A stretch of DNA of 64,000 nt from Lytechinus pictus (lineage: Eukaryota). A program made the translations under genes and the position numbers. Within the stretch, counting starts at the first letter, position 1. Every line of letters starts with the position of its first letter. Positions 2,711-24,939 of the stretch are shown here, piece by piece. The notes beneath the pieces were generated by a model, which was given only the letters and a program-made list of their open reading frames with translations, was not told the origin of the DNA and searched no databases. Location: NCBI RefSeq assembly GCF_037042905.1, contig NC_087245.1, positions 19,532,001-19,596,000 on the forward strand. Reading direction: 5' to 3'.

Positions 2711-5700
2711 GTCGTGTCTTTGGAATTTTGGGTTCCTGAGGCTGCTTGGCTGGAATTACAACTTCTTCAAATTCAGGTTGCCCATACTTTGGAGCATCAA
2801 AAGTAAGTTCAACAGGTGCTAGTGGCCTCTTTGGAGTTTGCATTTCAACTTGCGTTGTCTCACGTTGACTAGGATATTCTTCAGTTTCAACAACAGTGGT
2901 TATGATTTCAGTAACAGTTGTCACAGACTCATCTTCAGGCACTTCTGGTACAACTAGCACCTCGTATTCTGGCTCTTCCTGCTTGGGCATTTCTAGTGTT
3001 AATTCTACAGGAGCAAGAGGTTTTTGTTTTTGATTAATTAAAACCTGGGACTTCTCCCTTGAAGGTACCTCCTTGGTTTCAACAACTGTTGTTACACTTT
3101 CTGATATAGTTATGGTTTCTTCTTCTTCCTCTCCCTTTGGTATTACCAGAATTTCATATTCTGGTTTTTCAGGTTTGAATTTTTGAATTGGGTGAATTGG
3201 TACATCTGCAGGTCCACGCGACGGTTGTTGAAGATCTTCAGGAGAGATTGGTTTAGGAACATCAACAGTTACCTCAAATGACTTGAGTGGTCGGTCTTCC
3301 TCAATTTCAATTTCAGCAGTTTCTCTTCTCTGAGGTTTCACAGAAACAGACACTTTTTCTGTCCTCTTTGGACGTTTTTCTGTGCGAGGTTTTACTTTTT
3401 CATGAGGTATATCTTGAACATGTACATCAGCATATGTTGAAACAGTTCCTTCTTCGTTAGTAGCAACACACTCAAACTCAGTGTCATCAACTTCTTCAAC
3501 TGGGTTAATTACAAGAACAACACGTCCATCCCTCTCAACAAGTGTTAGGTATCTATTACCTGTCACTGGTGTTCCATCCCTTCTCCATCTGGCAAGAGGT
3601 TGTGGTTCTCCAGTAATCTGACATTCTAACCTAGCTGTATCCCCATATGAAACTTCAACATCATGAGGAGCTGTCAACACTTCTGGGGGTATCCTGGTGA
3701 CAGCTGCTCTTGCAAATGGAAGCTCTTCTGGAGATAGAGGAGTATGTCCAGGAATTGAATCTTCTGGCAAGAGGTCCGATTCTTCAACAGTGATTGGCTC
3801 CGTTTGCTTCTTTTGAGCTTTCTGTGTTGGTTTTCTTGGCCTTTCAGGCTGGCTGGGAATAACAAGTTCTTCATATTCAATTGATGGTTGTTCTTCATGC
3901 TCAGTGATTGTGGTTGTTTCAGTAGTCACAGTTTCTGTGTAAGTTCTTGTTACATCTTCAGGCTGTTGAAGATCAAGGATGAGCTCAATCTCATGTGGTT
4001 GAGGCTGGGTTTCTAATTCAATAAAACTCCTACCTCTCTCTTCAGGAGTTGGCAACTTTTTGCTTGGCTGTGGATGAACTTCTTGCACAACTGTCTGTTT
4101 TACCATTGTTTTCTGTTTGGTAGGCATATCTGGAGCATATTCAGATGGTATTACCAACTCTTCATATTCAGGATGCAGTGGAATTTCAGGCTTTGGTTTT
4201 GGCATCAGGTTTTCCTCTCTGAGCTGGACATCTTGTACAGTTGGGGTTCTGAACTCCATTTGAAAAGATTCAGGCTTCTCTTGTGGCTTGGGCTGAACCC
4301 TTTCAGGACCTAGAGTGATTTCCTCGACTGGAGCATGATCAAATGCCATTTCAATAGGTTTCTGGGGTTTTGTTTTAACTTTTGGTAATACTTCTTCTGG
4401 ACCCAAAGAAATTTCCTCTACATGTGCTCCTTCAAACGTCAATTCAATAGGCTCTGGAACTTCTTTAGGAATCACTTTCTCTGGTCCCATAGGCACCTTC
4501 CGCACCGCCTGTTTGGGAAATTTCACATCAAGAGGTTTGGGTTTCTCCCTTGGTAGTACCTTTTCAGGTCCAACATCAATCTCCTCAACTGGTGTCTGAG
4601 AAAATGTAAGGTCAATTGGCTCATGTCTTGCTGGGAATATTTCCTCAGCCCCGAGAGTTATTTCTTCTACAGGCTGTTGCTCAAATTGCATATCGATTGG
4701 AGATTGGTGCTGAATATTCTCAGCACCAGGACAAATTTCGTATGATTCTGGAATATCTATATCAATCTTAAGAGGTTCTGTATATCGAGGCAAAATTTCT
4801 TCTTCTGAGTAATCAACTGTACTTGGAGTTGGCAGGTCAAATGAGAAATCAACAGGCCTCCTTGGCTCTTGGGGATATTCAATTGAGTACTTTTCTACAG
4901 GTTCTTGATCTTCTTCAACATCCCTTCTTGTAATATGCTCTGTAGTTCTTGTCCTTTTCCTTCTTGTAATAGTTTCATACTCTTCTTGTGGTTTATCTTC
5001 CCTTGTGTCAATTATAAACTCAACAGGTGCAAGAGGAGCTTGTCTATCAATATCAATTGTAGTCCTTTCACGGGTCTCTGGTGCTCTTGGTCTTCCTTGC
5101 ACAGTTGCTGTTTGTCTTTGAGGATAAGGTTGCACACCATCTATAATCAACTCGATTTCCTGTGTAGGTCGTTGGTATTCAGGGTACATATCATATTCTG
5201 ACCTCTGAGTTGTGATATCAGACAAAGTGTCATCTTCATATCTTGTGATGGTTTCTGTAACAGTAGTTGTAGTCATTGTCTCTGTTCTATCCTCTGGTGA
5301 TATCTCAATAGAAGAACTGACTGGTCCTGGCTGCCTCGGTGGGATATACATGCGCCTATCACGACCAGGACCAATTTCTATTTGTGTTCTATGAGGATAG
5401 TACTGTTCTTGTTCACTGTCAGTGGTATAAATCTCTGTTGTGACAGTTTCAGTTACAGTTCTTCTTGTGACAGTTTCTTGCCTAGTAACTGTCAAATTTC
5501 CAAATGAAGAAACTGTTCCCAAAGGATTAGTGGCTCTGCATTCATAAACTGTTTGATCTTCTTCAAGTACAATCTTGATTACAAGTATGCATGTACCATC
5601 TTCTTGGACAATTGTCTCAAAGCGATCCCCATCAATGGGACGTCCATCTCTCAGCCATTGGATCCTGGGTCTTGGTAGACCTATGATAATTGTCTGCAAC

Positions 5701-7762
5701 TGAGCTTCTTCTCCTACAATAGCCTCAGTATCTTGCAATTCCTCTATCACTTGTGGTCTTCCTGGATGTGTTGGTTGCTTAGCTCGAGGCTTAACAGCAA
5801 CTTCAGGCTTGGGCTTCCTCTCAGGAAAAGATACTGGATATTGCTGCTCTGGTTGAACTTCAAATGGTACCTCTTCTTCATACTCTGGATATTCAGGCAT
5901 GGGAAATTTTACTGGTTTTCTTTCTGGCTGCTTTTTTTGAGGTAAGATGCTAGGTTCTTTCACCTTAACTGGAACCTTGGGCTTGGGTAGCTGATCAAAA
6001 GGCTTGTATAATTCAGGTTGTACTTCTTCACAAGGAACCACAGATTCTTTTACTTGAGCTGGAGGATGTGGTTGTGGCATTCTCTCAATTGGTTCAGTCA
6101 GGGATATCTGCTCTTGAACAACTTCCTCTGGATATAAAGGAGCCTCGTGTAATACATGAGGATGCTCTCTTTTTTCCAGTCCCTTAAAGGATACAGGACT
6201 ATCAACTGGTTTCATACTGGATGGCTTAACCTGTGGTTCATGCACATAAGGTATTTGCTCTGGAGCAGGAAGGTCACTTAATGATTTCATAGTGAAATCG
6301 GGTTTCTTAACTTGCTTTGAGACTTGCTCATGAACTGTGGTGGGTGGTTTTTCCTTCTGAAAAGGAAGCTTGATGTGAGTAAATGGTTGAGGATGCAAGT
6401 CCTCAAATAAGACATCTTCTTCAACCTCCTTTGGTGGCTGAAACCTATCTAATTGTGGGTGATACTCTGCGGGCTGTCTTTGGTCAGGTAACACTTCTTT
6501 CTCTGTAACAGTAGGATGTATCTGACGAGTAAGAGTGAACTCCTGCGTTGACCTTTCAGGTGGTTTGCCAATGGGAATGGTGACTTCTTGCTGACCTGGA
6601 CTCATTGGAATATTTACTTCTTGGGTCATCCTTGGTCTAGGACCATATTCTCGGATCACCTCATAATCTTCCACATTGTAATCATCAGGTCCCCTCTGAC
6701 CAATATCAGTCTCAAATATTGTTTGATGTGTAGTTCTTGGTTGAGCTTGAGTTCGATCCCTTGGCCGCACCTCCACAGTCATACTTTCTGTACCACCGGT
6801 CGGCTCTTGTCCATCCCTCAACACAGTCGTCACCTTTTTGGTTGTTGTTGTAGTTGTTATTGTGCGAACACTTTCAGTGTCACTCTCAACAACTTTCTCA
6901 ACTCGTTCAGTCCATGTTTCTTCTTCAGGTTCTTCTTGAATTGTGGTAATTCGCTCTCTAGAAGTGGTTTCAACCAACAAGTCAGCATAGGTAATAGTTT
7001 TTCCAAGCTCATTGACGGCCTTGCACATGTATTCTGCATCATCATCGGAACAAACATTCTTAATGATCAATGTGCAAGTTCCATCTTCTTCATATGTAAT
7101 CACAACACGATCATCAGCAGGAATGGGGCGTCCATTCTTATACCAAGTCACAGAAGGGCGGGGTGTTCCAGAAACCTTAACAACAAATTTAGCAGTGTGC
7201 CCTTCAGTCACCTGTGTTGACTTGAATTCAGAGGTGAATTTTGGCTTCTGACCATGAATAAGCAATGTCTGGTGTTCCCGTCTTCTTCTGGGCCTTTTGC
7301 CTGCCTGTGGAATGGGTTTTACAATGAGGTCAGCAAAGCTAGATGCTTCTTCTCCAGCTGCATTCACAGCCCGACATTCGATTTCTGCAGAATCATCACG
7401 AGTCACATTAATAATTGTCAATGAGCAGTGTCCCTGGTCATCATAATGCAACGTGTAACGTCCTCCAGGATGGATCTCAATACCATCACTAAACCATCTT
7501 ATCTGTGGAGCAGGGCGTCCGGTAACTCTGGAATCAAACTTGGCAGTACTGTTTTCCAGTACCTCAATGTCTAGTAGTTCATTTAGAAACTTAGGTGGCT
7601 TGTTCCTGACAACTCTGTAAGTACGCTCGGAGTACTCTGAGGGGGCCTCAATGTCACTTTCTGCTACCCTGGTAGTAGTTGTTGTAGTGGTTTTCCTTAC
7701 TCGTCGTATCACTTCTGATTCAGAGAAGGCCTCATCACCACTGACTGTCCTCATCTTACCAG
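1..7762 (-). CDS. TTN: Giant exon (at least 7762 nt, at least 2586 codons, open at window edge): Ig17-Ig20, PEVK-like segments and 67-aa repeat array
   Basis: Acceptor ttcttttctttggcag|CT GGT AAG. The frame at 7760 matches the repeat reading frame at positions 5-3. Ig domains lie at about 7320-7605, 6980-7250, 5485-5760 and 3425-3680. It is absent from the ORF track because no stop is reached. Confidence 0.9.
4290..4780 (-). repeat. Degenerate coding repeat of about 27-31 aa, 5-6 copies
   Basis: PIEMAFDHAPVEEITLGPER / PIELTFEGAHVEEISLGPEE / PLDVKFPKQAVRKVPMGPEK / PIDLTFSQTPVEEIDVGPEK / PIDMQFEQQPVEEITLGAEE. Confidence 0.8.
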
Positions 7763-8108
7763 CTGCCAAAGAAAAGAAAAGAACTATCGAATTTTAACTA
7801 CAGTACTTGAGCACATACAGTATAATTCAAAAGTGGTTTACTATCATTTTAATATCATGTTCATTAAAATCTTAATCATTCTACTTTGAATCTTTCTATA
7901 CATTTGACAGGGAAAATGTAAAAATAATAATTGAAAGTAATAATAATCATCACAAATGAAAGAATGTTAGCTATTGCTGCTTTTGTGGAGAATATTTATT
8001 ATACAAGGGGAGAAATATGTTATCTTTTAAGAATTTATTTACACATTATTATTTACAAGAGAGGTAGATTTTAAATTAAATGAATAAAGGGGAACATAAA
8101 AAACTCAC

Positions 8109-8726
8109 GTCGAACAGTCAATCTGCAAGTACAGACAGCTGTACCATAAGGATTAGTAGCTCTGCAAGTGTAGTCTCCGGTATCTTCTGGAAGAGTGACA
8201 TTGATAAGAAGGGATACCCTGTTGCCATTTATGATATATTGAAAATCTGGTGAGTCCTGGATGATCTGGTCATCCTTCAGCCATGTTATCTGGGGGAAAG
8301 GAGATCCTGTGATGATACAGTCCAGCTGGACAGTCTGGCTTTCAGAAACAGTGACATCATTGACCAGCCTCCTGAACTGGGGAGGTTCTGGCATGGCTTC
8401 CTGAAAACCTGAGATGTTTAATGTAATGTTAATGTTGGTAGGCAACTGCCCCGGAATGGTTTGTCCATATATTTGCATTGGGGTTCCAGGTGTTCCAGGG
8501 CCAGGAGGTCCTGGGGGAAGTGCATACTGCTGGCTTGTGAAGGTCATGCCTGGGATTTCCATATCACTTTCTTCTGTTACTGTCTCTGTCACAGTCTTTT
8601 TTGTGGTTGTCTTGGTAGTCGTCCTTCTTGTAGTAGCGGATAATTCCTCAGTGGTTCTCTCAACATCTGAGGGCCCCTCATGGACCTCTACGGTCCTTGT
8701 TGTAGATGTGGTAGGAGTTGACGAAT
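8109..8726 (-). CDS. TTN: Exon, Thr-rich linker and Ig16
   Basis: ctttag|AT TCG...CGA C|gtgagt, phase 1-1, 618 nt. Confidence 0.92.
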
Positions 8727-9023
8727 CTAAAGAAGAATACAATTTATGAATATTAGTGAAAGCTTCTGAAGTACATGTTTGCAAGCATCATGGCATCAGG
8801 ATATTGTTATGCATGTATAAAGATTGACCATGCCTTTGGTTTCAATACTTTCTGTAATCCTAACTTTACCCCCAATTCTAACTGTGATACATAATTTTAG
8901 CATCTAGGAAATACTGTCATGCATTTACAATCCTTTAAATACATAAGATCAAAATTAATATTCACTTCAATGCTCTCTTTTCCTTAAAACTATTTATTAT
9001 TCTTTCAGTAGGCAGAATCTCAC

Positions 9024-9200
9024 CTGGCCTGTACTCCAAACCCTGAGTTGTTCTCTGACCTGTCCTGGTGAGGAACACACCTGGAGACGTCACATTTACA
9101 CTTCCTGGCTGGGAGGTCAGCCCATCCTGCTCAACATTGATATGGATTTTCAGATCTTGCTGGGAGTCAGTGACATCCCTCTGGTATCGGTAAGAAGATG
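9024..9200 (-). CDS. TTN: 177-nt linker exon
   Basis: atacag|CA TCT...CCA G|gtgaga, phase 1-1, open frame SSYRYQRDVTDSQQDLKIHINV. Confidence 0.8.
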
Positions 9201-9937
9201 CTGTATATGGATAAATATAGAAACATCACATGTACTGATATAATACATTGGGAAATTTGAATTAGTCTTAATTCATATCTAGCATAAATTAACTCTTAAT
9301 GTGCCAGATGAATCACAGCTCTACGGGATTTATGTGTACTATCAGGTGCTGATTGGCAACAGCAGCACTCTGAGAGTTGAGCAATATAATGTTTAGATGC
9401 AATAAGCAAATATTAACATGCCAATGTAATGTGACGCTTGAAAACTGGTAGTTTTGTTGACTTCAGCATGGGTCTTGACATTTAATGTCATGCTATTACA
9501 GTGATGGGACTACACATAGATCCCCCCACCTACCTGAAAAATAGGTTCGCTGCTCGAATCTCTGCCAATGCACTTCCATAATGACACTCTATCCCATTCT
9601 AATTAGAATACTTCTAAACTCAGGTCATTATCTGTAATCAATCCTAACAGCAAGTTTGAGTCCTAACACATATCAGAGTTGTGAAGTGTTTCATTTCCTT
9701 CCTCTCCTAGCTTCTACCAATTGTTAAAACTCAGCATCAGTTGATCTGATGTTGAACTAAAAGTATAAGCAATACAGTTGGTATAGCCATGAACACAAAA
9801 ACAGCATATTATATTTTCATGCTTTCCACTTGATTGCTGACATGATATTTTGGCAAGGATTCAAAATATTTCCTCCACTCAATCCTCATTCAATCTAAAT
9901 ACTGCAGAGGACATGAACGGGACATCAATGGACTTAC

Positions 9938-10106
9938 GGTTAACTGTGAGGTGTGCAATAGACGTTGCTTCTCCTGCCTGGTTGGTGGCCTTGACGATAT
10001 ATTCCCCAGAGTCTTCAGGATAAAGGGATGAAATCTCAAGAACACAGGTGCCATCTTCTGTGATCCTGATGGTGATGCGACTGTCTTGCCTCAGCTCCCT
10101 ACCACT
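9938..10106 (-). CDS. TTN: Exon, second half of Ig15
   Basis: atgtag|AGT GGT...AAC C|gtaagt; PEDSGEYIVKATNQAG. Confidence 0.9.
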
Positions 10107-10457
10107 CTACATCACCAATGTCCACACAAGAATGTTACATTAATACATATATAAAAGATTAAAAAATATATCATGAAACTGTAAACATTAACTTCAGTTT
10201 TGCAACGTCAGCCATGTATTTCATCTATGAAATAATGAAGTAAGTAACCATTGCCTTACACTCACCGATGACTCTTGTCTTTCATTCTATTAAACATTGG
10301 ATCTTCAATAACAAAAGACAATAATTACAAAAAACTGAATTCTTAAGAAACCATGATTATCTGTCAATCCCTAATCATGTAAGCAATAATTTTTTTTATA
10401 GTTGAGCTATAAATATGATGAGAAATTTTATCACAAGTAGCCTCAACTGGCTCATAC

Positions 10458-10780
10458 CTTGTACCACCTGACTGTTGGTCTGGGGTTACCACTGACGTGG
10501 CACTCAAAGCGGGCAGTTCCACCTTCGTTAACCTCCTGACTGCTTACAAATGACTGGAAGGATGGAGGTTGAGCAGGTTTTGGACGGAGTTGAGGTTGGA
10601 CTTCGGCAGGTTTGGGCTTAGGTGGAGCAGGAGCTGGAGCGGCTCCTGGCCTGAAGGTTGGAGGTGGTATCGTCTGGATGTCGAGGTCTGAGTAGTAGAT
10701 ATCCTCTCCAGGAGCCACAGACAGTGTGGACTGGATGAAACGAGCCTGCTTGGTCTCACGGACTATGCGTTGCTCCTCAT
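10458..10780 (-). CDS. TTN: Exon, linker and first half of Ig15
   Basis: cattag|AT GAG...TAC AAG|gtatga; FECHVSGNPRPTVRWYK. Confidence 0.9.
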
Positions 10781-11239
10781 CTAATGAACAGTGAGCAATG
10801 ACATTACAGGATATTGACATAAATTGTTTGCTAGGTAATTAGATTCAAATACATGTACATGTTCAGTGTTGACTTGACTTAATTTTTCTTGATGCAATGA
10901 CAAATGTTCTAGTGGCCTCAATTTCATTTCAACAGTACTCTGTTTTAGTTTTGCTTGATACAGATGCTTTTAATCTTATTATATTTGTATACTTTATTGT
11001 CAATGTGATACTGGTTAAGAGTTCAGTCACCTTCCAAGATATCAGAGATGGATGTTTGACCATTAAGATTTCTGCAATAGAAAAGGGATTGTTGTCATCT
11101 AATCAAATTCTACTGAAAAATTCTATACATGGATAATATAGACATTTAGAAAATGCATATAATTTTGAGTCTGAATTCTTGTCATTCCTCACAACTAACT
11201 TAAAAAAATTTCATTCATGACAGCACTGGATTCACATAC

Positions 11240-12445
11240 CTTCAACGATCAGCTTTGCAGTACATGAAGCCAGTCCAGCTGCATTCTCAATCTTACATGT
11301 GATTTTGCTTGAGTCATCTGGCTGCACCTTAGGAAAGGTCAGTGTGGTTGTTCCATCTGGCTTAGTGTCAACCTTGCAAATTATTGAAGGTATTAGCTCT
11401 TGTCCATCTCTGAACCATTTGATAGACGGCATAGGTTTACCAGACACCTGTGCTTCAAAGCGACCTTCCTCCCCAGGTTTCACCCTGCAGTGATTGATGA
11501 ACTTGAGAAAGTTTGGTGGTTTCCGATCCTCAGGTGGTGGTGGCATTATAGTAAACTGTTTAGATTGAACGGGTACTGCCTTAGTTGGTTTGGTTACCTG
11601 AGGTTTGATGTCTGAAGTCACCGGTATCTTCATTGTTGGAGCACCTGGCGATGGTTTCGGTGCTGCACCTGGTTTGGCTGGAGTGCTAGGTGCTGGTGTT
11701 GCTGGTTTGCCTGGTGTAACTGGAGCCTGAGAAGATTTAAATGGCACTGATGGTTTTGGTGTCACAGACGGTTTTGATGTCAGAGATGGTTTAGATGGGC
11801 CTGGTGGTTTAGTGTCCTCTGGTTGCTGGAACTTTGCCAATAGTGAAGGTGTAACATAATGCTTTGGTGGTGGCACTTGTCCTTGGGTGTGAGGTGGCAT
11901 GTACACCACAGGAGGTGTACCAAGATCAGCTACTTCTGGCTGATCTATGTGCAGCATTGGCTGTGGTCGGACACTTCCAACATCACTTGGCGCAGGTGGT
12001 CTTGTAGGGGATAAATCCTTTTGCATTGGACGTCTTGTAGGAGATAAATCCTTTTGCATAGGACGTCTTGTAGGTGAGGGTTCCTTTCGCACAGGGCGGG
12101 TAGGTGACAAGTCCTTATGTGCACGATCTTCAGCTCTCTGAAAAGCTTCAATCTTAGAGGATAGTTTGGTCTTGGCTTGTGCTTTAGTTAAGCTTGGCAC
12201 CTTATCCGCTGCTTTTTCTTGACTGTCGTCTGTGTGCTGAGCAAATGGATGCCCCTCTTCATCTTCACTCTCCTTCCTAGTACGTTTCTTCTTCCGTGGC
12301 AAGACCAGGGTCTCATCATAGGGTAGGATGTCGTCCAGGTCAACGTCGGTATCAGAGTCCATACCTGGGTCGACACTGGCACTGACATCAGCCCCATAGG
12401 ACTCACTGAAGCTAAGAAGATTTCCAGCAGGAGCATCTATATCAA
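11240..12445 (-). CDS. TTN: 1206-nt exon: acidic/basic segment, SPTR repeats, Pro-rich linker, Ig14
   Basis: taacag|TT GAT...GAA G|gtatgt, phase 1-1; overlaps ORF 11232..12488. Confidence 0.92.
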
Positions 12446-13004
12446 CTGTTAAGTCATACAACATGGTTACAAAAAAATAAGAATGCAATATAACAAATTA
12501 GAATTCTTGGACCTGCAATTATTTAAACATTGTCATGTTTTAATTGTAATTTGCATAATATTCTTAAGTGCTTGAGATTTTCATAAGCTATGAAACTTGT
12601 CTTACCTAAAAACTGCATAGTTTGTACACACCTGATATATAGTAAAGCTTACTTTTATTGAAAGAAACACAACCAATTTCAATTAAGATTTTTGCAATCT
12701 CTTTAAACAGATTTCATTATACTACGAATCCACTCTGAATACAAGAGAGAATATAAAAATGTATTTCAAATTTATTTTTTCAATTAATATCTTATCACAT
12801 AAGAAACTTCAAAATTCAAGAGAACTTGATCTCATCATTACCCCAGGCAGACTTTCATTCCTAGCGTATTTGCCAATAATTGTTCAAAAGAAATGTCCTA
12901 TTTTAAATTTACACTTTTTCTATCTAATAGTAATATACATCATACGATCTGATCATCAACTTATATCACACACAGTTTTCATATGTCAACATCATCACTT
13001 TTGT

Positions 13005-13478
13005 TGTTTGAAAGTTTGCATGGTGGCAATCACTGATGTGGTTTACAGTACACCATGTGGAGTGTTATAGAAACAGTGGATAGAAGAAGAAAAGAAATGG
13101 ATAGGCGAGAAAGTGGAAATTTGAGAGTAGAGTAATCTTTCTTGAATGTAGTCCTGAACTTATCTCCTGAAGACGGACAGTTAACCTGTCCGAAACGTCG
13201 AGTCTCTGACAGTCAACCTGCCCGAAACGTCGAGTCTCTCTACTGCTTCTACTCATCATCTCTACTCGCCGACTCAAGCCAGCATCTCCTCATCCATCCT
13301 ACTATTCAAGCTGTTTTCAACTCATCAATCTCTTCTGGTTTACAGTCCTTTTCAGGACTACATTCAAGAAAGATTACTCTACTCTCAAATTTCCACTTTC
13401 TCGCCTATCCATTTCTTTTCTTCTTCTATCCACTGTTTCTATAACACTCCACATGGTGTACCGTAAACCACATCAGCG
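13005..13478 (+). mobile_element. Penelope-like retroelement fragment with inverted terminal segments and 14-bp TSD
   Basis: 130-bp inverted repeat 13029-13158 / 13351-13480 with 2 mismatches seen. Direct repeat atcatcacttttgt at 12991-13004 and 13479-13492. Hammerhead motif inside. Confidence 0.7.
13164..13202 (+). ncRNA. Minimal type I hammerhead ribozyme motif
   Basis: CTC-CTGAAGA-C-GGACAG(ttaac)CTGTCC-GAAAC-GTC-GAG: core boxes, 6-bp stem II, palindromic ACGT, GUC triplet, 3-bp stem I. Confidence 0.6.
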
Positions 13479-14455
13479 ATCATCACTTTTGTCAAGTCAA
13501 TGTAAAGTCTAATAGTATACTGAGGGGGTATCAAACATTAGATTCTTAAACATCCATGCAGAATGCAAAACTAGAATTGACAATTTGGTGCAAATTTTAC
13601 AGTAAAGAGCTATAAAGGCAATTCAAGAAGGAAAATTTAGGGGGTTTGATTTTTTGCATCAAATATTTAAATTATTTCATTGACCCTATCATTCATTTTT
13701 ATTCATACAAGAACCCATCATTATCAACATCATGTAATGGCATTGATTATTTATGATTTTTTTAATTTGTATTCCATTTATTTTCATTTATCAATTTATT
13801 ATCTTCTTATTAGAGGAGGGACATTGTGCCTAACACCTATTTTCCTTGGATCATTCATTAAGGATATACTTTTTTTAGTATTTCATTCCAATAGTAGACG
13901 TTTTAATCAAGAAAAATCTCTATAATACATTTGGTGTATTATAGATGTGTTTTGTGGCCACTGAATTTTCATTATTAAAATGAAGTATTTACTTTAGATC
14001 TAACCAAGACATGAAAGACCTATCAAAATGTTCCTACATAATCATTAGCTCCATCAAAGCAACTATATGCTGTTCGCTCTAAATACTATTTCAAAAGTGT
14101 ATCCTACTTCCACATCATAAAAAATTCTATGAATTTCATTTAAATCTATCCAGTCTGTTTGCATGTGAATCTAAACAACCATAAAAATATGAAGGAAATA
14201 GGGTCAATTTATTTTAAAAAAATGTAAAATTGTAAAATAGAATTTATTTAAATATGAAAATACAGCATTTAAAACTTTGTTTTGTACACTTTTTATTTCT
14301 TTTTTCTTAACTTGATCAAGGGAAATACTTTCTAAGTGACCAAAAAAGCTTATAAGTGTAACCCTAGTTCAATAGGACATTTCTACTGAGATAAACCACA
14401 AACACATAGGATTAACTACAAACATGACACAATATGAAAAAAACTTGGTACTTAC

Positions 14456-14580
14456 ACATGCTAGTAGATTAACGGCACGCTGGGTGATGTTAAGTCCACG
14501 ACAGATGTAAGGGATTGACGAACGGTAGATGCAACGACAGGATCATGCAACGCGGGTAGTGCATACTACGTACATGTACT
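14456..14580 (-). promoter_or_regulatory. Candidate internal alternative first exon (5' UTR plus ATG T|gtaagt); 5' boundary unknown
   Basis: CpG-rich island in an AT-rich intron. agcATGT|GTAAGT is a perfect donor. There is an in-frame upstream TAA. Splicing to 12445 gives in-frame M-F-D-I-D-A-P. Confidence 0.5.
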
Positions 14581-14869
14581 GCATGCTTATTATTTCATGC
14601 AAATGTATACCTGAATCTGTTTATGAATTCACTTATATTACAATTTTATGCATTTGTTTTCCCCATTTTTTAATCATCATTATCTAACTTATTACATACT
14701 TAAGTTTATACTTTGTATTACTTACCAATCAATTGTCCTAACTGTTATATTTTGTTTGTTTTGTTTCAATTTTTTCATTTCTTTTTTTCACTTCATTATT
14801 TGTTTATTTTCTCCAATTATATTAGGTCAGGCCCATCAGTGAGCTAAGAAACTGCAAATTGTTATTTTC

Positions 14870-15020
14870 ACCATCAATATTACTGCTCTGATCATTATTT
14901 TTTTCAACAATAATGTTATCATTACTACTATTTTTATTATCATTATTATTACATCTTTATTCATTATTAACATCATTGTTATCATCAAAATCATCATTAT
15001 GATTATTACTATCATTATCA
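14870..15020. repeat. Degenerate (ATC/ATT)n microsatellite
   Basis: Trinucleotide low-complexity tract; similar tracts at about 19170-19320, 34510-34580, 36305-36380 and 61710-61740. Confidence 0.8.
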
Positions 15021-15988
15021 ATTTCTAACAAATACATTAATCTATTGATATTCCAATTGCTCATTTTCTCTTGGCTTCTTTTATTAAGTTGGTATATTCT
15101 TGGTACGTTATTTCATATCTTTATATGGGTGTTTACTTCACCAATAAGTTCACTTCCAAGTCAACGATTCAAAATTACATAATCTTTTGATGCTCAATTA
15201 TGATGCTTATGAAGTAAGTTATTTCTTATCTTCTTGAAGAATATCTACATGAATATTTAGTATATTTACCAATATTCAAATAATTATGTTCATCTTTGAA
15301 CCATTGACATTTTATGATAAACATATTTATCAAACAACGAACATTTGTTCGAGCTGTATTATGGTAGGTATATTAATGAATTCATGAATGATATTTATGC
15401 TATTCATTAATATTAATCAAATATGTATTTAAATATGTATTCATTTTTATTTATGGTACTTATTTGGTTAAGTTAGAAATGAATAGAAAAAAAGTTCTTA
15501 ATAGCACTGAATAGCAATATATCTTTAGTAGAGGCTTATTGATTTTTGGAAAATCTATGGCCTTTCAATTTGGTGGATATGTGCATTTATCATTAACTAA
15601 TGATTCAATAAGAAATAAGACATGCTCGAAACACACTTATGAACATAATGCAAGTCAAACACCACATAACAGTCGTGGATAACAATATACATCCATTAAA
15701 CAGTGTACAAAACAATATCAATAATGCTATCTTTTAACATGTCAACAAATAATGACTTATTTTGAGAAGTTGGAATGTGCAAGTTCAGCATGCTGTCAAA
15801 TGTGATATAGGTATAGCATTCCCTAATGAAATGGTGCCAACATATCAACACAGTTAAACAACATTTTTCCTTAGTATATTCACATTTTTTATGTTCACTA
15901 AACAAACCAAATACATGCACTAACAGCTTTACACACATTTCATGTTGTTTTCAACACACTTACACATAATGGAAACATAAGCTTTACA

Positions 15989-15994
15989 TTTATT
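15989..15994 (-). terminator. Candidate poly(A) signal for the tail-anchor isoform
   Basis: Minus-strand AATAAA followed about 22 nt later by GU-rich tgtgtaagtgtgtt. Confidence 0.4.
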
Positions 15995-17759
15995 CATTGC
16001 CAAAGATTTGTTGAAATTGTTGAATGGAGTAGATTTGTTAAAAGCTATATAATCATTGAACTGAATCATTAATTACACAATTCAAGATGTATTCTTTAGC
16101 AAAAAGAAAATAGAACCTCCACTGTAATTCAACAGATAAAGTCACCCATCTATATGTAAATGAATCGCAAGATGTCCGTAATATTTTTTAATCTTGCATA
16201 AAAACATGGAGCAGTGTTGTTTATTTTCTTTTATGTGTTGTTTATTATCTGAAATGTGTTGCTTTCCTTCTTCAGAATGTCAGAGAGACAAAACATATGT
16301 GTATTGAACAAAATTTGTGTCACGCAATCTTTCCAATACTTGTAGTAGCCCCACTTTGCAAGTGTATGTATGGAAACTTTGCCACAATGGTAACTACCAT
16401 GGTAACAGGTCAAAGCAGCCAATCAAAATCAAGGTTTTAATGAATGTTAACATAATACCAAGTTACCATATTTGTATATCTTTATGAAATGGAACTCCTA
16501 ATTGTATTCATAGGAAAAATATAATACTGTAATGGTATGCACTAACCATATCCCCCCCCCCCTTTTATGGAATATCTATTTTTTGGGTGATCTCCTTTGC
16601 TTTGTAAGCATACATGTCTGTGAATGCTTTTCTTTCATCATATCCTGTCATTATCTCTTCATTTGTAACACCTACTGAGTTTTACAAATCATGTTTTATC
16701 TTTTCTTTATACTGTATTTATCAAAATACATGTATGAGAAAAGGGATATTTTTTAATGAAATGGAAGTTGTCTAAACATTAAATCTATACAATCTAGACA
16801 TTAAAATTGTTCATTCTATATATAATGCACAATTTCTGTATTTAAAAAAAAATCACTTTTAAAACTTGTGGCAGAATATCTATGTTCCTTGCAGATTAAT
16901 AGCCCTTCTGATATTTTTTTTCTCCAAAAAAGATAAAATAGCAGTTTATCAACATCAAAATCCCTGCATTTGGATGAAAAGTTTTTAATTAAACTTTATT
17001 TTCAGGTTCCTATAACTCTATGAACTTTAGAGATTCCAACAAAGTTTAAATGTCTCTCAAATTTGATCAGTATCCTTACCCCAACAAGTAATTTAAATTA
17101 TCGAATTCTTAACATTACCAACAAAGATTAAGTCATTCTTTTTCACATTTAGCATACTGACGGGTACAGGTTTATTACAGTAATACGCAACTGAAAAAAA
17201 AACTCATTACATCTTTCTTTTTTTTTTCTTTAATCTGCAATCGATTTAGCATTTTTCATGAATCAATAAATAATATAAGATCGGAGTCTGGAAAAGTATA
17301 ATTGGATTGCAGATTTTAAAGGTAAATTTGAAATTCATTTAGATGATATTTTAAGGTTCATACATGTATCTCACCATGTGAAGTTTGGTTTTATTTGATT
17401 GATTCTTTCCTTCAAATGCCCTCAGAAAAGGACATGATATACCTGCTAGTATAACATGGGACAATGACATTGGACACCTCACCCATTAAATTTCTTTGAT
17501 TTGATTTTTTGACATTAGATCAATTAATATTTTCAAACTATGCTAAACAACCTTCAAAGATTTTATTCTCTGTAAAATGGGCAACCCAATTCCAAACACT
17601 TCAAAATTATGTGAGTTCGGTTTAGTCTCACTCTCTTCAAAATTAAAGATCTACATCAAAACCAGGGTTACAAATCTATGATCAGTTCCTATGGCAACGG
17701 GGGGGGGGGGCACCTAGGCTAATCTTTCATTCAATCTGATACAAATGATCTTGGTTGGT

Positions 17760-17893
17760 TCATTGTTTAAAAAATGTGAGGGCAATGAAGGACACAAACC
17801 AAGCCAAAACCAAAACCAAACTACACATGACACCCCAAGCTGGTATCAGCTGGGCAGCTTTGAAGTCCAATGGCTTCACTGATTCTTCTGAAT
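17760..17893 (-). CDS. TTN: Candidate alternative terminal exon encoding a C-terminal transmembrane tail anchor
   Basis: Pyrimidine-rich acceptor cttctacccgtttcactttcaatcacag|AT, phase 1, matches the Ig13 exon donor. It encodes (D)SEESVKPLDFKAAQLIPAWGVMCSLVLVLAWFVSFIALTFFKQ*. Confidence 0.6.
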
Positions 17894-19758
17894 CTGTGAT
17901 TGAAAGTGAAACGGGTAGAAGCGATGAGCTCCACGAGGTATCCACATTTTTTAGAAAGTATGTATTTGTGATATGGCATTTAAAAGCTCAGCGAATTTTG
18001 TGTGTACCAATTCAATGAGGCATGAGGCCTTTTAAACATGTTTCTGAGGCAAGAGTCCCTAAATTAAATTTATTGAAATCAAACAAAACAATGGACCAAT
18101 CAAATTCTTTTTTCAAAATCTGTTCAGAGTTTTACTGATAGACTCAAGACATTATAATGACATCGTATAATAGGAGTCACAAAATCATATGAAATATCAG
18201 GAGTTTGCCAAGACAAGCAACTTTTTTGGCATGAAAATGATGTAATTGTCTCATCATGTCTGAACAGCGATTTTTTTTTGCTTAGCTTTGTAACACCATA
18301 TCTAAAAGAGGATTCTAGATCAAAGGGATTGTAGCAATGATAAAGTGACAATAAGATGAAAATGAGATGGTGAGAGTTATTGAAATTTATAGCTTTGGCA
18401 TATTTCTGTCTGTCTGGTGACACTCTTTAATAATGATAAAAGCTCCCTCAGCTTTGTTGCTTTATGCTCCTTAACAAGTTTGAGACACTTTTCTGAGCAG
18501 TAACCCATCTCTATCTTTTCCTTGCTAATGCTCCCATTCCAGCAGAGTAATGGCGATGCAAGGAGTTCCACTGTAAAAGATACCACATTGGCTTTTTGCC
18601 AAAAGATGTGGAACAGACTTTTGTTGCAGAGCCTAGTTCCTAGTTTCCTGTGTGACCTTTACAAGCAAAATATCCAGTGCATTTTTTTATTTCATTAAGG
18701 ATGCTTTTATGGGAAACATGGTATTGGTTTTAATATTCCCATCATAAAAATGAAGAAACTATTTCTGAGTCACCTGGGAAAGTTTGATTGGATTTTAATT
18801 TGCTTAGAATATTCCAAATTATCATACTGTTCTTGTTTGTATAGTATTTAAAGGTGATTTGTGTGTCTTCTTCATATCTTTTATATATTCATGTTTTAAT
18901 TTTTAACCAAGTTATCCTTTTTCTCCCCTCCCATTTCTTCTCTTCTCTCTCTCTCTCTTTTTGTGTATACTTGTAGGAAAATATTAACTTTACCTGATAA
19001 CTACTGAATTCCTTGATTCCCATAGGTATTTTATAGATATCACCAGGTTTCAGTAGGCATCAAATCCCCTGTAGGCATCATCAATACTAGCATGGATGTA
19101 AACACCATCACATTACAATTGCTTCCACTCTCCAACATTACAGCTGCAGTCAACAGTTCCTTGTCACCATCATCATATCATCATCAGCAGAAGCAGCAAC
19201 ATCATCATCAACTTCATCAGAACTACCAATACCATCATATCATCTTCGTCATCAACATAATCAGCAGCATTACCATCAATTCCACCTTTGTCATTCTCAA
19301 CAACATTATAACTATCATCGTCTTTTTAACCACACTAATTTCTCAGATTGGAAACACATAAACAAAGCATCTACATCGTCACTACTCATGTTCTATCATG
19401 ACTTATGGCATCACAAGTTCTTTCCTCTTTCTCAACAAATATCACACAAAAACAGCACTAAACCCACTCATTAGATACATTTGGAACTCAGTATAAAAAG
19501 ATCCTTGAGACAATTATTTAACAAAATAACAAAGTTATTTTACACTGTAGGAATCGTGTTATGTAAGCTTTAACAACAATGAATGAAAAAGCTGGGAATA
19601 TGAAGAAAACTTTTTCATCCGTAGGAAAATATTAAATTCAGATCTTTTTATATTGAGTTTCAACTGTTTAACTATATCCATCATCAGCATAAAAAGCATA
19701 GATTTCGTCATCCTCATCATCATCGTCATCATTGTAATCCACATCACTGGCATCATAC

Positions 19759-20073
19759 CTTCAACAAGCAGCTGAGAACTGCATGTGACCTGTCCTGCCG
19801 GGTTGGAAGCCGTTACGGAAATACGACCGGAGTCGTCGGCAAGCACCTGAGGGATGTAGAGCGTGCTGGTCCCGTCCGAACCGGTGGAGACCCGCTTATG
19901 GGGCATGCTCTGAATCAGCTTTCCCTCATGAAACCACTGGACCTCAGGGCGTGGACTCCCAACCACTTTGCATTCAAAGCGGGCGGGGCTACCCTCGGCC
20001 ACCTCTAGATTCACTATCTTCTTTAAAAACTTAGGGGGAACAGCAAACTCCGCTGCAGACTCAATTTCTTCAA
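19759..20073 (-). CDS. TTN: Exon, Ig13
   Basis: ttccag|TT GAA...GAA G|gtatga, phase 1-1, 315 nt. Confidence 0.92.
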
Positions 20074-23000
20074 CTGGAAAAGGAGGCCAAAGTGAGAAGG
20101 AGATAAAAAAAAAGAAAGAAGATTTTTTTTAAAAAGCACATCAGAATTTTGTTTCCAGACAAACCCAAAAAGATTAAAACTGTTTCATCTAGTTCATTTT
20201 CAGAACAATGAATAATTTCAATATGGTTTGCAATGTGTAAGCTGCAAACTGAATTTCAGTATAAATATAGATAACATATAAATATTGAGATGTGCATGGT
20301 TAATTTTGTGTGCAAAGCATCAGCCTCTTTACAGGGTGCAGGTGCAATTACGTATCACCCCCTTTCTGGGGAAATTTGGTTTCACTTTGAATGTGAGTGT
20401 CTAGTGAATGAGACTACTGAAATCAAATTATGTGATTCTAATTCATGAATAATGAATGAATTGGGGTAAGCAATTAAGGATATTGAAAGCAGGGTGGGAG
20501 CCAATATGATAAATCATAAGGCCATGGTTTTTTTTCTAGTGGGATATATAATATAGATAGAAGCTGGGGATATATATATATATATGTAGATATATAGAAT
20601 TGGTGAAGAAATTGAATGCGAAAGTGAGAGCAGCAAAAAGATTATATATGTGGCAAAAAACAGCCTGCGTTTCCCCCTAAGCTGATCATTCACACAAAAC
20701 TAGCCATCCAAGACAACAAATAAACATCCATATGGTCCAAATATTGCCAAGTAGTCTTACCTCGAAGAGGTGAAGTGAATTTCTGTTTGGTTTGGTGAAT
20801 AATTTAGCATGTCATAAATTGAAACAAGGCAGAAATAAATGCTCTCGTCTAACATGAGATGTTGTTTCTGCCTCATTTCAATTTATGTCATCTCACACAA
20901 AAGTCCCGGTAGAATCCAAGGTTACTTCAGTGAAAAGTAGGCCATAAAATGATTCTGAATGCCCAAACCAGGTTAGTTTTTCATAAAATGGTGAGTTAGT
21001 TTACCATGGTGAGAGAAATATCATGACAACCATTATTAATTGAAAAGTATAAATAAACAGGAGCTAGTAACAAAAAAAGGAAGAATCTTTCAAAATTCCA
21101 CAAACTTGGCCCATACTGGATGTGTATTTGGCAATGATGGTGCTGAAAACAAGTCGCACACAACATCTCTGAATGCAAAGATTGGAAACAAAGTTGTCTT
21201 GAAGCCAAATATATAGCTCTTTCACACTTCATGCTACTGTAGCCTTTAATGCATAAATCAATATTCTTTAATAAAAGGGACATTAAATGAACACAAATAC
21301 AAATTCTTATTGCATACTAAATGATTAATAGACATTATCTGAGAATCAACAGATCTTGCTAGAAAAAATTGGGAACGAAAATAAATAAATAAATAATAAG
21401 ATTGAGTTTGGTTCACAATGTCCAAATAAAAGGTACGGCCTGATTGGCAGTGTGGGATATGTCAATTTTTATCCAAAAAAAATGATTTTATGAAAGAAAG
21501 ATGTAAGTAAATAAACAATTTGTATTATTATTGCCATGTTATAAAATTGCACTACCTACTCACACAATAAAAAAAGTTATTCTAGATATCAAACTACATT
21601 TTACATGTAAAACCACTACCCCTTTCCCCAAAGATTATCACAGCATGTATCAAATGTATTATCATATTAAAAGTACTGCATTTTCAAGCACTGATTTTTA
21701 TCTTAGAGGAAGACATAAGGTGTTGTTGCTCGTTCAAATTACGAAGAAAAAAATCTGGACAATTTCAGCTATATTAACATAGCTTTCACAGACAAAAACT
21801 TGATCCAATCACAATAATGTAAAAAACATGAATTAAATAAATGACAATTTATACATAGATATAGGAAATGAATACATGTTTTCAATTACATATATAAGTT
21901 TATAGTCATAGATAACTGAAATCACTCAAATACTGCATACTTTTGCCTGCAACATCTTTTCATCTGGAGCTTTCTAACGTACTTCCCTTTAAAATTCCAC
22001 TTCTATCAAGAGAACAAACTTCTTCATGTTCTGTTCTGTTTTCTCAACTGAAATTCTCTTTTAATGAAATTGCACCAAATTAAGTGAAAATCACTTATTT
22101 AAAGATAAACATGCAAGTGTCACATCATGGACTGTTCAAACATCTATCTAGTCTATTGCACACAACTACAATATTTCTTCCTCTGGCAAGGTTTATATCT
22201 AATGCACTTGTAAAGTTTTTAGGGTTTACCTACCTTACGTGATTGACTGAAAGTCATGAAATTATAATTTACAACATACACATATATATATTTATGAAAA
22301 TCTTTTTTTGTTTCATTTTATGATTTTTATAGTTTTCTCATATCATTTGAACTGCAAAGTATCATAAGGCACAAATGGTGATACCAATTTTTTGTCAGAA
22401 AAAATCATTTGTTACAAATGGAGAATTTTCATATAAAGACAAAAAAATAACATGCATATTTTTTTTCCAATAAACCACTTCTAGGTATGATATCAAATCA
22501 AACAGTGCAACAAAGCAACTAATTTTGTAAACATTCCTCAAAGTTTATAAATTTTTATACATTTTGGTGCATATCCGTCAATGGTACAGACCAAATTATG
22601 CTCACAAAAAAAAATGTTCACGTACTCCGATTTTTGGCAGTCAGAATAATTTAAGAGTACTATGATATTTTTGGCAGTGCAGTACAAACATTTGGAAGAT
22701 TTTGGTACATTTTTGCCCAAAAAAATTGAGTTATAACAGAACATTTATGAAGAATGAGTGTGTCCAAAAAGAAGCAGTATACTTGAAAAATCTGGAAAAA
22801 AACCTGGGAATGACCATGTGATATACACATTTGTGATATCAATGAAATTGTCGGTGTAATGCACCAAGTGTTTGTTGATGATTCTCATACAGTTACTTCC
22901 AGACCTGATTTCTCCCATTTTGGTTTCTTTCCACAGCCACTTATTACCTATGTTATCTTTCTATGTAGCAAAAAAAAACACGCTTGAAATTAAATGTGCA

Positions 23001-24750
23001 TATAACCCAATATAATCAAAAGATCTAGAAAATGGTGTGTGTGCATTAAGAAAGCTATTACTCCTATGGCATTGCAGATGGGGAAAAAATCTGAAGCTAC
23101 TGTTACTGTTTTTATGTCTGATCTGTTTTCACTTGCTTCCTTTAGAAAATAATGGTTTCTTGAATCAACTAGTAAGAAAATCATAATGTTCTTGATACAA
23201 TTCACTGCTAAATCCTAATTTCAATTTTCCTCTTCAATTGTTGAATAACATGACATATCTCAGAAATGTCAGCTCCCATGTGCTAAAAAAATCTACATGC
23301 ATACTAGTATGTGCAGCTTCATATAAAAACGGAACGTAAATTGGTACTTTTCTATAAACTTAAGTATTGAAAAAAAAACAATGTAAATCTAATCTTTCTG
23401 ATAATCTCTGAATTCTGAGAGCTGATATTTCTTCCTTGATATATAGAGGAAAATCATTGATGGTTTTGACAGTGAGTAAATAAATATTACACTGTAATTT
23501 CTAACAACATATTCACAAGCCATTAATTGATGGTACTTCACATTTATGTACCAATATGTAATTTTTCTAAGCACAGATGAGATCTATCTGGACAGTTTTC
23601 AGCCATTAATTGTCCACAATGTGCATATCTGGCCACATTACAACTGAATGTGTTCCACCAAATTTAATCAAAAATGACAAAAAAGACTTTCTTTGCATTG
23701 CTTGCTGACATGCATGACATCATGGTCTTTTTCCTGTCAAAGAAAATGATAATCAATTGATAGATTTCAAAAATTTAGTTTTAGTTTAGTTAATCAAAAT
23801 CAGCAAACAACAGGAGACAGAAACAGTTTGTTTTAGTATGGCTTCCAAAAATTGTTAGGGGTACTTTTAAGGGTTACTGAAAAACATGACTTTGCTTTAG
23901 AAATTTGGTATCGATCAAAACTTGTCTTATGTTAACATCTTTTGAAAGATCTTGTGGCTTTGAATATGTTGTTAGTTACAAAAAAAATGGTCATGAGCAA
24001 GAGAAATTTCGAACAGAAATACGTGTATGTACACTATTGTTAATATTATCTTTTAACGAATTTACAGACATAAAGTAGACATATGTCAGCTTTTAATTAC
24101 ACAATAATGAAGAAGTGATAATTATGCAACAATAAACTGTGGCAAACATCAGTAACACCAGTAACAATATTTCAGTACTAAATTTCTCTTGCAACATGTG
24201 AATCACAAATATTACACACATCACCCCATAGATAAATAAATGAGATAAATTACAGTTTACATCATCTTGACATATGCTAAATTCACGCTTGACATATGCT
24301 AAATTCACGAGATCAACTATAGGTAAGTTTAAAAGATAATGTGGCTTCCTGAATATTGAGTTTAATGAAAGATGTTGGTAGCAACTATGAATGATTGCTA
24401 AGAATATGCTACAAAACCTAGATGTAAAGGACCCAAATACAGGAATGGGATCAGTATACATGATCACAAGTTATTGTGCTAGATTCTAGGATATATATAA
24501 TTAATGATGTCATGATTTACGGATATGATAATTCCTTAAATATTCCTCTATCATATTGGAGATAGTTACAGAAACTAAGTCCCTTGTTGATTATTGAATA
24601 AATAGGTTATACACGATTAATGGGAGTACACAAGTATAAAAAGAATGAATGGATAAGTTGAATCCAAAAAGGTGTTATTACAGCAGTGTTTGAATTCAAG
24701 GTGATAGAATTAGAAAGAGCGCCCTCAAAGGTCATCAGACTCCCACTCAC

Positions 24751-24939
24751 CTTGTACGTTCAAGATTCCACTGCAGGATATACGTCCAGCGTTGTTAAAC
24801 GCCTCGCAGACGTATTCCCCACCATCTTCCTGGAAGACCTCATTGATCTGGAGTCGGGCGATCCCGTCATCGTAGCTCATGCGGAAGTAGCGTGATGGCT
24901 TGATGATGCCTCCGTTGTGGTACCAGTTAATAACAGGTG
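24751..24939 (-). CDS. TTN: Exon, second half of Ig12
   Basis: ataaag|CA CCT...CAA G|gtgagt; INWYHNG...FQEDGGEYVCEAFNNAG. Confidence 0.9.

Follow-up and report, generated by a model that had tools for sequence, protein, structure and literature searches.

Can a gene for a giant muscle protein supply, from within one of its own introns, the anchor that would fasten a piece of that protein to a membrane? The question is raised by a short segment on the minus strand of a 64,000-nucleotide stretch of DNA from the sea urchin Lytechinus pictus (hereafter the window), where an initial annotation saw a hidden alternative last exon, lying in the intron after the thirteenth immunoglobulin (Ig) domain of a titin-like gene and closing a tail-anchored "mini-titin" of up to 13 Ig domains. 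In vertebrates, separate small membrane proteins connect the giant proteins of the sarcomere to the sarcoplasmic reticulum (SR); if the segment is what it appears to be, a titin gene encoding a membrane-anchored copy of one of its own Ig domains would provide such a link more simply and by itself.

Here we compare the segment with the splice sites of its host gene, with predicted proteins of L. pictus, with RNA runs, and with protein sequence and structure collections. The reading that we prefer, at a probability of roughly 45%, is that the locus makes a real tail-anchored product, most likely a single-Ig form of 156 residues. We take the segment itself (17893-17760) to be, most likely, a real alternative 3'-terminal exon, of minor use or confined to certain tissues, that is spliced to the Ig13 donor. 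As judged from the annotated models, the product would be one Ig domain on a tail anchor and not a mini-titin of 13.

The host gene and the Ig13 exon

Proteins encoded in the window are 96-100% identical to L. pictus proteins. By sequence alignment, the minus strand is the N-terminal (Z-disc side) part of the sea-urchin titin orthologue: the second Ig domain in the window matches Z2 in the structure of titin Z1Z2 (1ya5 residues 99-194, E=5e-35; 6fwx, 3.7e-70), and the Ig13 domain has titin chains as its closest PDB matches (6fwx, 8e-61; 3b43, 1.3e-55), with telokin (1fhg) at 4e-20. Because titin chains outrank telokin in the PDB, the host is taken to be a titin orthologue and not a gene for myosin light-chain kinase (MLCK). 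The names given by NCBI to the L. pictus pieces are "unc-89-like" and "telokin-like", and the gene name is not settled. "Ig13", the numbering of the initial annotation, is a fair label, since twelve I-set domains precede it, ten in the L. pictus model P0002 (described below) and two further upstream in the window. Coordinates of the features discussed are collected in Table 1.

Table 1. Features of the locus, in window coordinates.
Feature	Position	Strand	Description
Separate truncating exon after Ig12	23720..23733	-	acceptor ttatcattttctttgacag/GA AAA AGA CCA TGA, giving ...NVQ-G-KRP-stop
Start exon of the 156-residue model, coding part	22897..22918	-	ATG GGA GAA ATC AGG TCT GGA A/gtaact = MGEIRSG + one base
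Ig13 exon, one complete I-set domain	19759..20073	-	315 nt, phase 1 at both ends
Acceptor and polypyrimidine tract (cttctacccgtttcactttcaatcacag)	17894..17925	-	12.4 bits
Candidate alternative 3'-terminal coding exon	17760..17893	-	from sequence and translation; TGA ends at 17760
Short 3'UTR	17540..17759	-	probable; AATAAA 17567-17562, then G/U-rich stretch; X1 contig end 17540
Next exon downstream if the 7.3-kb intron is used	11240..12445	-	linker and one I-set domain (Pfam); optional

A candidate terminal exon in the intron after Ig13

The first base of the candidate exon is 17893, where the border on the minus strand reads cttctacccgtttcactttcaatcacag/ATTCAGAAGAA and the letters directly 3' of the acceptor cttctacccgtttcactttcaatcacag are ATTCAGAAGAATCAG. 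The exon supplies the second and third bases of an Asp codon, followed by SEESVKPLDFKAAQ, a hydrophobic segment of 27 residues and KQ-stop. When it is joined by coordinates to the Ig13 exon, which ends GTT GAA G/gtatga at 19759, the frame closes and the product ends ...LLVE-D-SEESVKPLDFKAAQ-LIPAWGVMCSLVLVLAWFVSFIALTFF-KQ-stop, so that both the phase 1 fit to the Ig13 donor and the 27-residue uncharged run, followed by two residues and a stop, are as first described.

Acceptors were scored with a position matrix from 16 introns of the host gene, placed by alignment to P0002. On this scale the acceptor at 17893 does better than "good", the word used of it initially: at 12.4 bits it stands above all 16 confirmed acceptors, which range from 0.6 to 10.0 bits in leave-one-out scoring, and among the 405 AG sites of the interval 12461-19758 only two reach its score, itself and one at 19591. 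The G+C content of the exon (0.425) lies in the top 4.8% of windows of the intron, whose mean is 0.307.

The exon region is present as a single copy in its own genome (an 812-Mb assembly), both as DNA and as protein, and no tandem repeats overlap 17893-17760. Origin from a repeat family, the finding that the initial annotation had named as one that would overturn it, is thereby ruled out; the tail peptide and the start exon discussed below likewise occur once each.

A predicted protein that uses the proposed junction

A search with the open frame of the tail retrieved a RefSeq predicted protein of Lytechinus pictus, XP_054758196.1 (our P0001; "telokin-like", 156 residues), which consists of MGEIRSG from a 7-residue start exon, the whole Ig13 exon and the proposed tail, and whose junction, ...LLVE-D-SEES..., is the very one proposed between Ig13 and the tail. 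Its I-set domain occupies residues 21-111 (Pfam, E=1.1e-21). The window preserves all three of its coding exons, with GT/AG borders (22918-22897, 20073-19759 and 17893-17760), and the 156 residues obtained by joining them match the model at 155 of 156 positions, the difference being V141F; the terminal exon corresponds to residues 113-156 apart from this substitution. The RefSeq models were not counted as RNA proof.

In the literature searched, neither a tail-anchored titin product nor a description of the 156-residue protein was found; the splice itself is already present in the databases, in XP_054758196.1. A term search of a paper on connectin/titin evolution (PMC12198301) gives neither "transmembrane" nor "novex", and finds the sea urchin twice, both times where abbreviated species names are spelled out (section 14).

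The model's start exon, likewise present once in the genome, ends in a weak donor (0.9 bits, where real sites range from -0.1 to 11.0), and a strong acceptor, tgtttttttttgctacatag/AAAGAT at 22960 (7.9 bits), lies 43 nt upstream of its ATG. The exon may therefore reach 22960 and be an internal exon of 64 nt. Such an exon (22897-22960, minus strand) shifts the frame and, entered in phase 1 from Ig12, reads E-R-stop, so that in long transcripts it could act as a poison exon. The L. pictus annotation splits the locus into at least two models (XP_054758196.1 and P0002), each ending in a very short exon of its own, as would be expected where a gene predictor fills out partial evidence ab initio; the first and last exons of the 156-residue model may therefore be such completions and not RNA-supported.

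RNA from the exon region

Four RNA runs (X1, X9, X10 and X11; tissues not given) were compared over window positions 11000-20400. X9, X10 and X11 comprise raw stranded RNA reads under the species label of the window, of which about 6% of each run was read; X1 comprises Logan contigs from organism A, whose sequence differs from the window by about 3%.

The Ig13 exon is covered in X9-X11 at a depth of about 2-4, and first mates map to the plus strand alone, which fits a gene on the minus strand. Zero reads fall in the bin 17594-17907 or on the exon at 11240-12445, and none of the joints listed leads into 17893; reads joining 19759 to 17893, which the initial annotation had suggested looking for, were thus not found in these runs. 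By a rough Poisson estimate, the tail exon would be present in fewer than about 15% of the Ig13-containing transcripts of the X9-X11 samples. Eleven X10 reads at donor 19759 run into 30 letters absent from the window, and these have a single site in the genome, C1:19511194 (G000:C1, locus L002), where a further Ig exon begins 40.5 kb downstream. X10 thus joins Ig13 to an exon beyond the window, and everything from 19758 to past the window start is skipped there. The "7.3-kb intron" initially drawn from 19758 to 12446 is accordingly one splice option and not the sole one. The same joint bypasses every exon in window positions 1-19758, including the repeat-rich exon of 2597 residues described at the end of this report.

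X1 contains spliced mRNA of the titin gene: its contigs cover 11240-12242, and the aligned part of one of them (record 1) stops at the exon border, the donor at 11240, with 33 further letters that are not colinear. Since X1 contains 11240-12242 and X10 skips it, part of the gene is differentially used. The candidate exon is covered in X1 by a 403-nt contig on 17540-17942 (depth 6.48), with a depth of zero on either side in bins 16338-17279 and 18222-19477. Beyond the acceptor, the contig follows the genomic sequence for another 49 nt upstream, so that the splice is not visible in the X1 assembly. No weight was given to the low depth of X1 on Ig13 (0.3-0.45), because filters and holes in contig data prove nothing. 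Of the X1 differences listed, four fall in the coding part, of which two are synonymous and two are replacements, V>F (the residue also found in XP_054758196.1) and I>F; the frame is kept. Codon positions were worked out by hand, and four changes are too few for a test of selection.

The same contig bears on the 3' end. It ends 22 nt after the first AATAAA past the stop, although contigs cannot prove an RNA end. The UTR of about 1.8 kb envisaged initially is made doubtful by this end, at 17540 in the relative. Its proposed poly(A) signal does exist (AATAAA at 15994-15989), but is not special, there being 12 AATAAA/ATTAAA hexamers between the stop and 15900 and 20 AATAAA in 5.3 kb here (3.8 per kb).

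Searches for known structured RNA in the transcribed block returned no Rfam family at gathering score across 12500-20400. A match to the fluoride riboswitch at 19065-19121 (minus strand), in the intron, scores 22 bits against a gathering score of 34 and is taken as chance.

Other readings of the segment

In one alternative, transcription of 17540-17942 would not yield a coding exon spliced to Ig13: the block would come from unspliced titin pre-mRNA by intronic polyadenylation, or would be a short transcript with its own start within the intron. The transmembrane (TM) frame would then have no upstream partner and could yield at most a hydrophobic micropeptide of 22 residues (MCS…FFKQ) from an internal ATG. 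Such a block would account for a contig that reaches, unspliced, 49 nt past the acceptor and has a plausible poly(A) site at its other end, for a frame that has no ATG upstream of the acceptor (ORF 17760..17987) and for the zero junction reads of X9-X11. It leaves to coincidence a very strong acceptor exactly where the frame requires one, in a phase that fits the Ig13 donor and that the RefSeq model uses; a short intronic stub can, moreover, persist in a contig when spliced reads are few. Read-through from Ig13 would also need X1 coverage across 17943-19758, where there is none, although contig holes prove little. We regard this as a serious contender, if a rather unlikely one.

Chance aided by software is a further reading: an AT-rich intron with a good acceptor and a hydrophobic frame would have been picked out by the initial annotation and the gene predictor alike, to give an end to an Ig13 fragment that otherwise lacked one, with no protein made. 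The hydrophobic tail alone is indeed not unusual, because the 64-kb window holds 33 stop-to-stop ORFs with an uncharged run of at least 20 residues ending no more than five residues from the stop, among which the tail ORF ranks seventh by its 19-residue Kyte-Doolittle mean (2.48). The other high-scoring AG, at 19591 on the minus strand (13.9 bits, 168 nt past the Ig13 donor), gives in phase 1 an end of 24 residues that is also hydrophobic (AFSFIVVKAYITRFLQCKITLLFC-stop), which indicates that such ends arise easily in this region. The fragmentation of the locus over several RefSeq models with short private start and end exons, the 0.9-bit donor of the start exon, a tail for which no homologue was found and the zero X9-X11 reads on the exon all sit well with this reading. 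It does not explain why X1 should show a discrete block that ends just past an AATAAA, why the G+C content of the exon should be raised, or why its acceptor should outscore all 16 confirmed ones, and we consider it unlikely.

Set beside these alternatives, a real exon is favoured by the acceptor score, the phase match, the G+C content, the conserved three-exon frame, the X1 block and the RefSeq junction; it is disfavoured by the lack of an RNA junction in the four runs, the unspliced contig, the weak start donor, the split annotation, a tail so far seen in one genus and the background of hydrophobic ends.

The mini-titin of up to 13 Ig domains would require that the terminal exon also close long transcripts from the titin promoter, as a tail-anchored Z-disc fragment made alone or beside the 156-residue form. 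The reading frame would permit it, the Ig exons running from phase 1 to phase 1 so that Ig12 (donor CAA G/gtgagt at 24751), Ig13 and the tail can be joined in frame, and the weak donor of the short-form start exon leaves room for another upstream partner. The long form is, however, shown by no model or read. The 156-residue protein is the sole bearer of the tail among proteins of 133-2000 residues, and this one model comprises one Ig domain and starts from a separate ATG exon (22918-22897). The upstream L. pictus model P0002 ("unc-89-like", 2569 residues, 10 I-set domains), which spans a large exon of 1238 residues and ends ...SGILNVQGKRP, closes after Ig12 without reaching Ig13, in a GKRP-stop exon whose acceptor scores 8.3 bits and whose encoded end equals the P0002 C-terminus. 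Because P0002 ends there, a form with 13 Ig domains and an anchor is without annotation support, and we think it improbable. Equally improbable in our estimate is a locus that makes membrane-bound titin pieces of both kinds, a single-Ig "membrane telokin" and, in some muscle or embryonic cells, a long anchored form running from Z1Z2 to Ig13; if it did so, the Z-disc end of titin would be fixed directly to the ER/SR membrane by the long form, with no need of an adaptor such as sAnk1 or obscurin.

Predicted topology of the 156-residue product

We return to the preferred reading, the single-Ig product. An AlphaFold2 model (made without an alignment) shows a beta sandwich of low confidence, disorder at residues 109-123 and a single helix at 129-155 of 156 with pLDDT 84-95. 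The 19-residue Kyte-Doolittle mean of the tail compares with a maximum of 0.54 across residues 1-110, and the 11-residue mean reaches at most 0.94 within the first 50 residues, for which reason the N-terminus is, by hydropathy, without signal-peptide-like character. The predicted protein would thus have the layout of a tail-anchored protein, as the initial annotation had proposed from the tail: a C-terminal TM segment with KQ after it, and no other membrane segment.

The product would comprise a 7-residue N-terminus from the internal ATG exon, an I-set domain identical to titin Ig13, a flexible linker of about 15 residues and a TM helix, with two residues left on the far side of the membrane. 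Having no predicted signal peptide, it would be finished in the cytosol and inserted post-translationally by a tail-anchor route (GET/TRC40 type), probably into the ER or SR membrane, and the Ig domain would face the cytosol. Since titin carries the same domain, the small product would be expected to share the binding partner of Ig13, and might either link the membrane to the filaments or compete with titin for that partner.

Homologues of the tail were sought among 1.84 billion representatives, among proteins of 85-273 residues and among those of 133-2000 residues, with none found but XP_054758196.1; the ESM Atlas gave generic I-set clusters only and nothing on the tail. The tail is so far known from one genus, in which a divergence of about 3% between the two species cannot test constraint.

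Relation to known systems

Telokin, or kinase-related protein, is an independent Ig product of the smooth-muscle MLCK gene. Both it and the predicted protein have about 155 residues and consist of one I-set Ig domain that a large muscle protein contains as well. The conserved ATG exon would be the candidate here for an own first exon of the telokin type, but its donor is weak and a strong acceptor lies 43 nt upstream of the ATG. The two differ in host, which here would be a titin orthologue and not MLCK, titin chains outscoring both telokin and MLCK in the PDB. They differ also in their ends, since telokin lacks a membrane segment and uses the last exons of its host, whereas here a private exon carries a predicted TM helix.

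Vertebrate titin novex-3 is a large alternative terminal exon without a membrane segment. Like it, the candidate exon would be an alternative 3'-terminal exon that lies in an intron of Z-disc/I-band titin and shortens the protein; unlike it, the candidate encodes a predicted membrane segment, in a tail for which no sequence similarity to anything was found. As with novex-3 the host is a titin orthologue. An RNA junction from the Ig13 donor into the candidate exon was not found in X1 or X9-X11. The GKRP-stop exon at 23733 may be a closer positional analogue of novex-3 than the tail exon is.

Small ankyrin 1 (sAnk1.5) sits in the SR membrane by an N-terminal anchor and links the SR to giant sarcomeric proteins. 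It too is a small membrane-anchored product from inside a large cytoskeletal gene, and a linking function is what we propose here; its anchor is N-terminal, however, it has no Ig domain, and there is no sequence relation. VAP-A/B, SLMAP and the junctophilins, which act as membrane tethers, share with the predicted protein a layout in which a binding domain in the cytosol, an Ig-like beta sandwich in the case of VAP, is joined by a linker to a C-terminal TM helix with few residues beyond it; their domains are MSP, FHA/coiled coil or MORN where this one is I-set, and the analogy is architectural only. In its working the 156-residue protein would be a hybrid of telokin, novex-3 and sAnk1; judged by its sequence, it belongs to none of the telokin, novex-3, sAnk1 or VAP families. 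If real, it would represent a third route to small products of giant muscle genes, beside internal promoters (telokin) and truncating end-exons (novex-3), a proposal whose weight is limited by a tail seen in one genus and a junction not seen in runs X1 and X9-X11.

Other features of the region

Two further features of the window were observed downstream of the candidate exon. A dispersed repeat at about 12990-13490 has inverted ends of about 130-157 nt (MITE-like), with 113 scored matches and 1171 first-look candidates over many contigs of the genome; it is abundant in all four runs (raw RNA depth up to 64), with many internal rearranged joints. At 3-7793 on the minus strand lies an open exon of at least 2597 residues that is rich in P, E, V, K and T and has embedded I-set domains; it contains near-identical tandem super-repeats of about 1 kb, opposite-strand ORFs starting at 84, 1089 and 2094, and looks like the PEVK-like spring region of sea-urchin titin.
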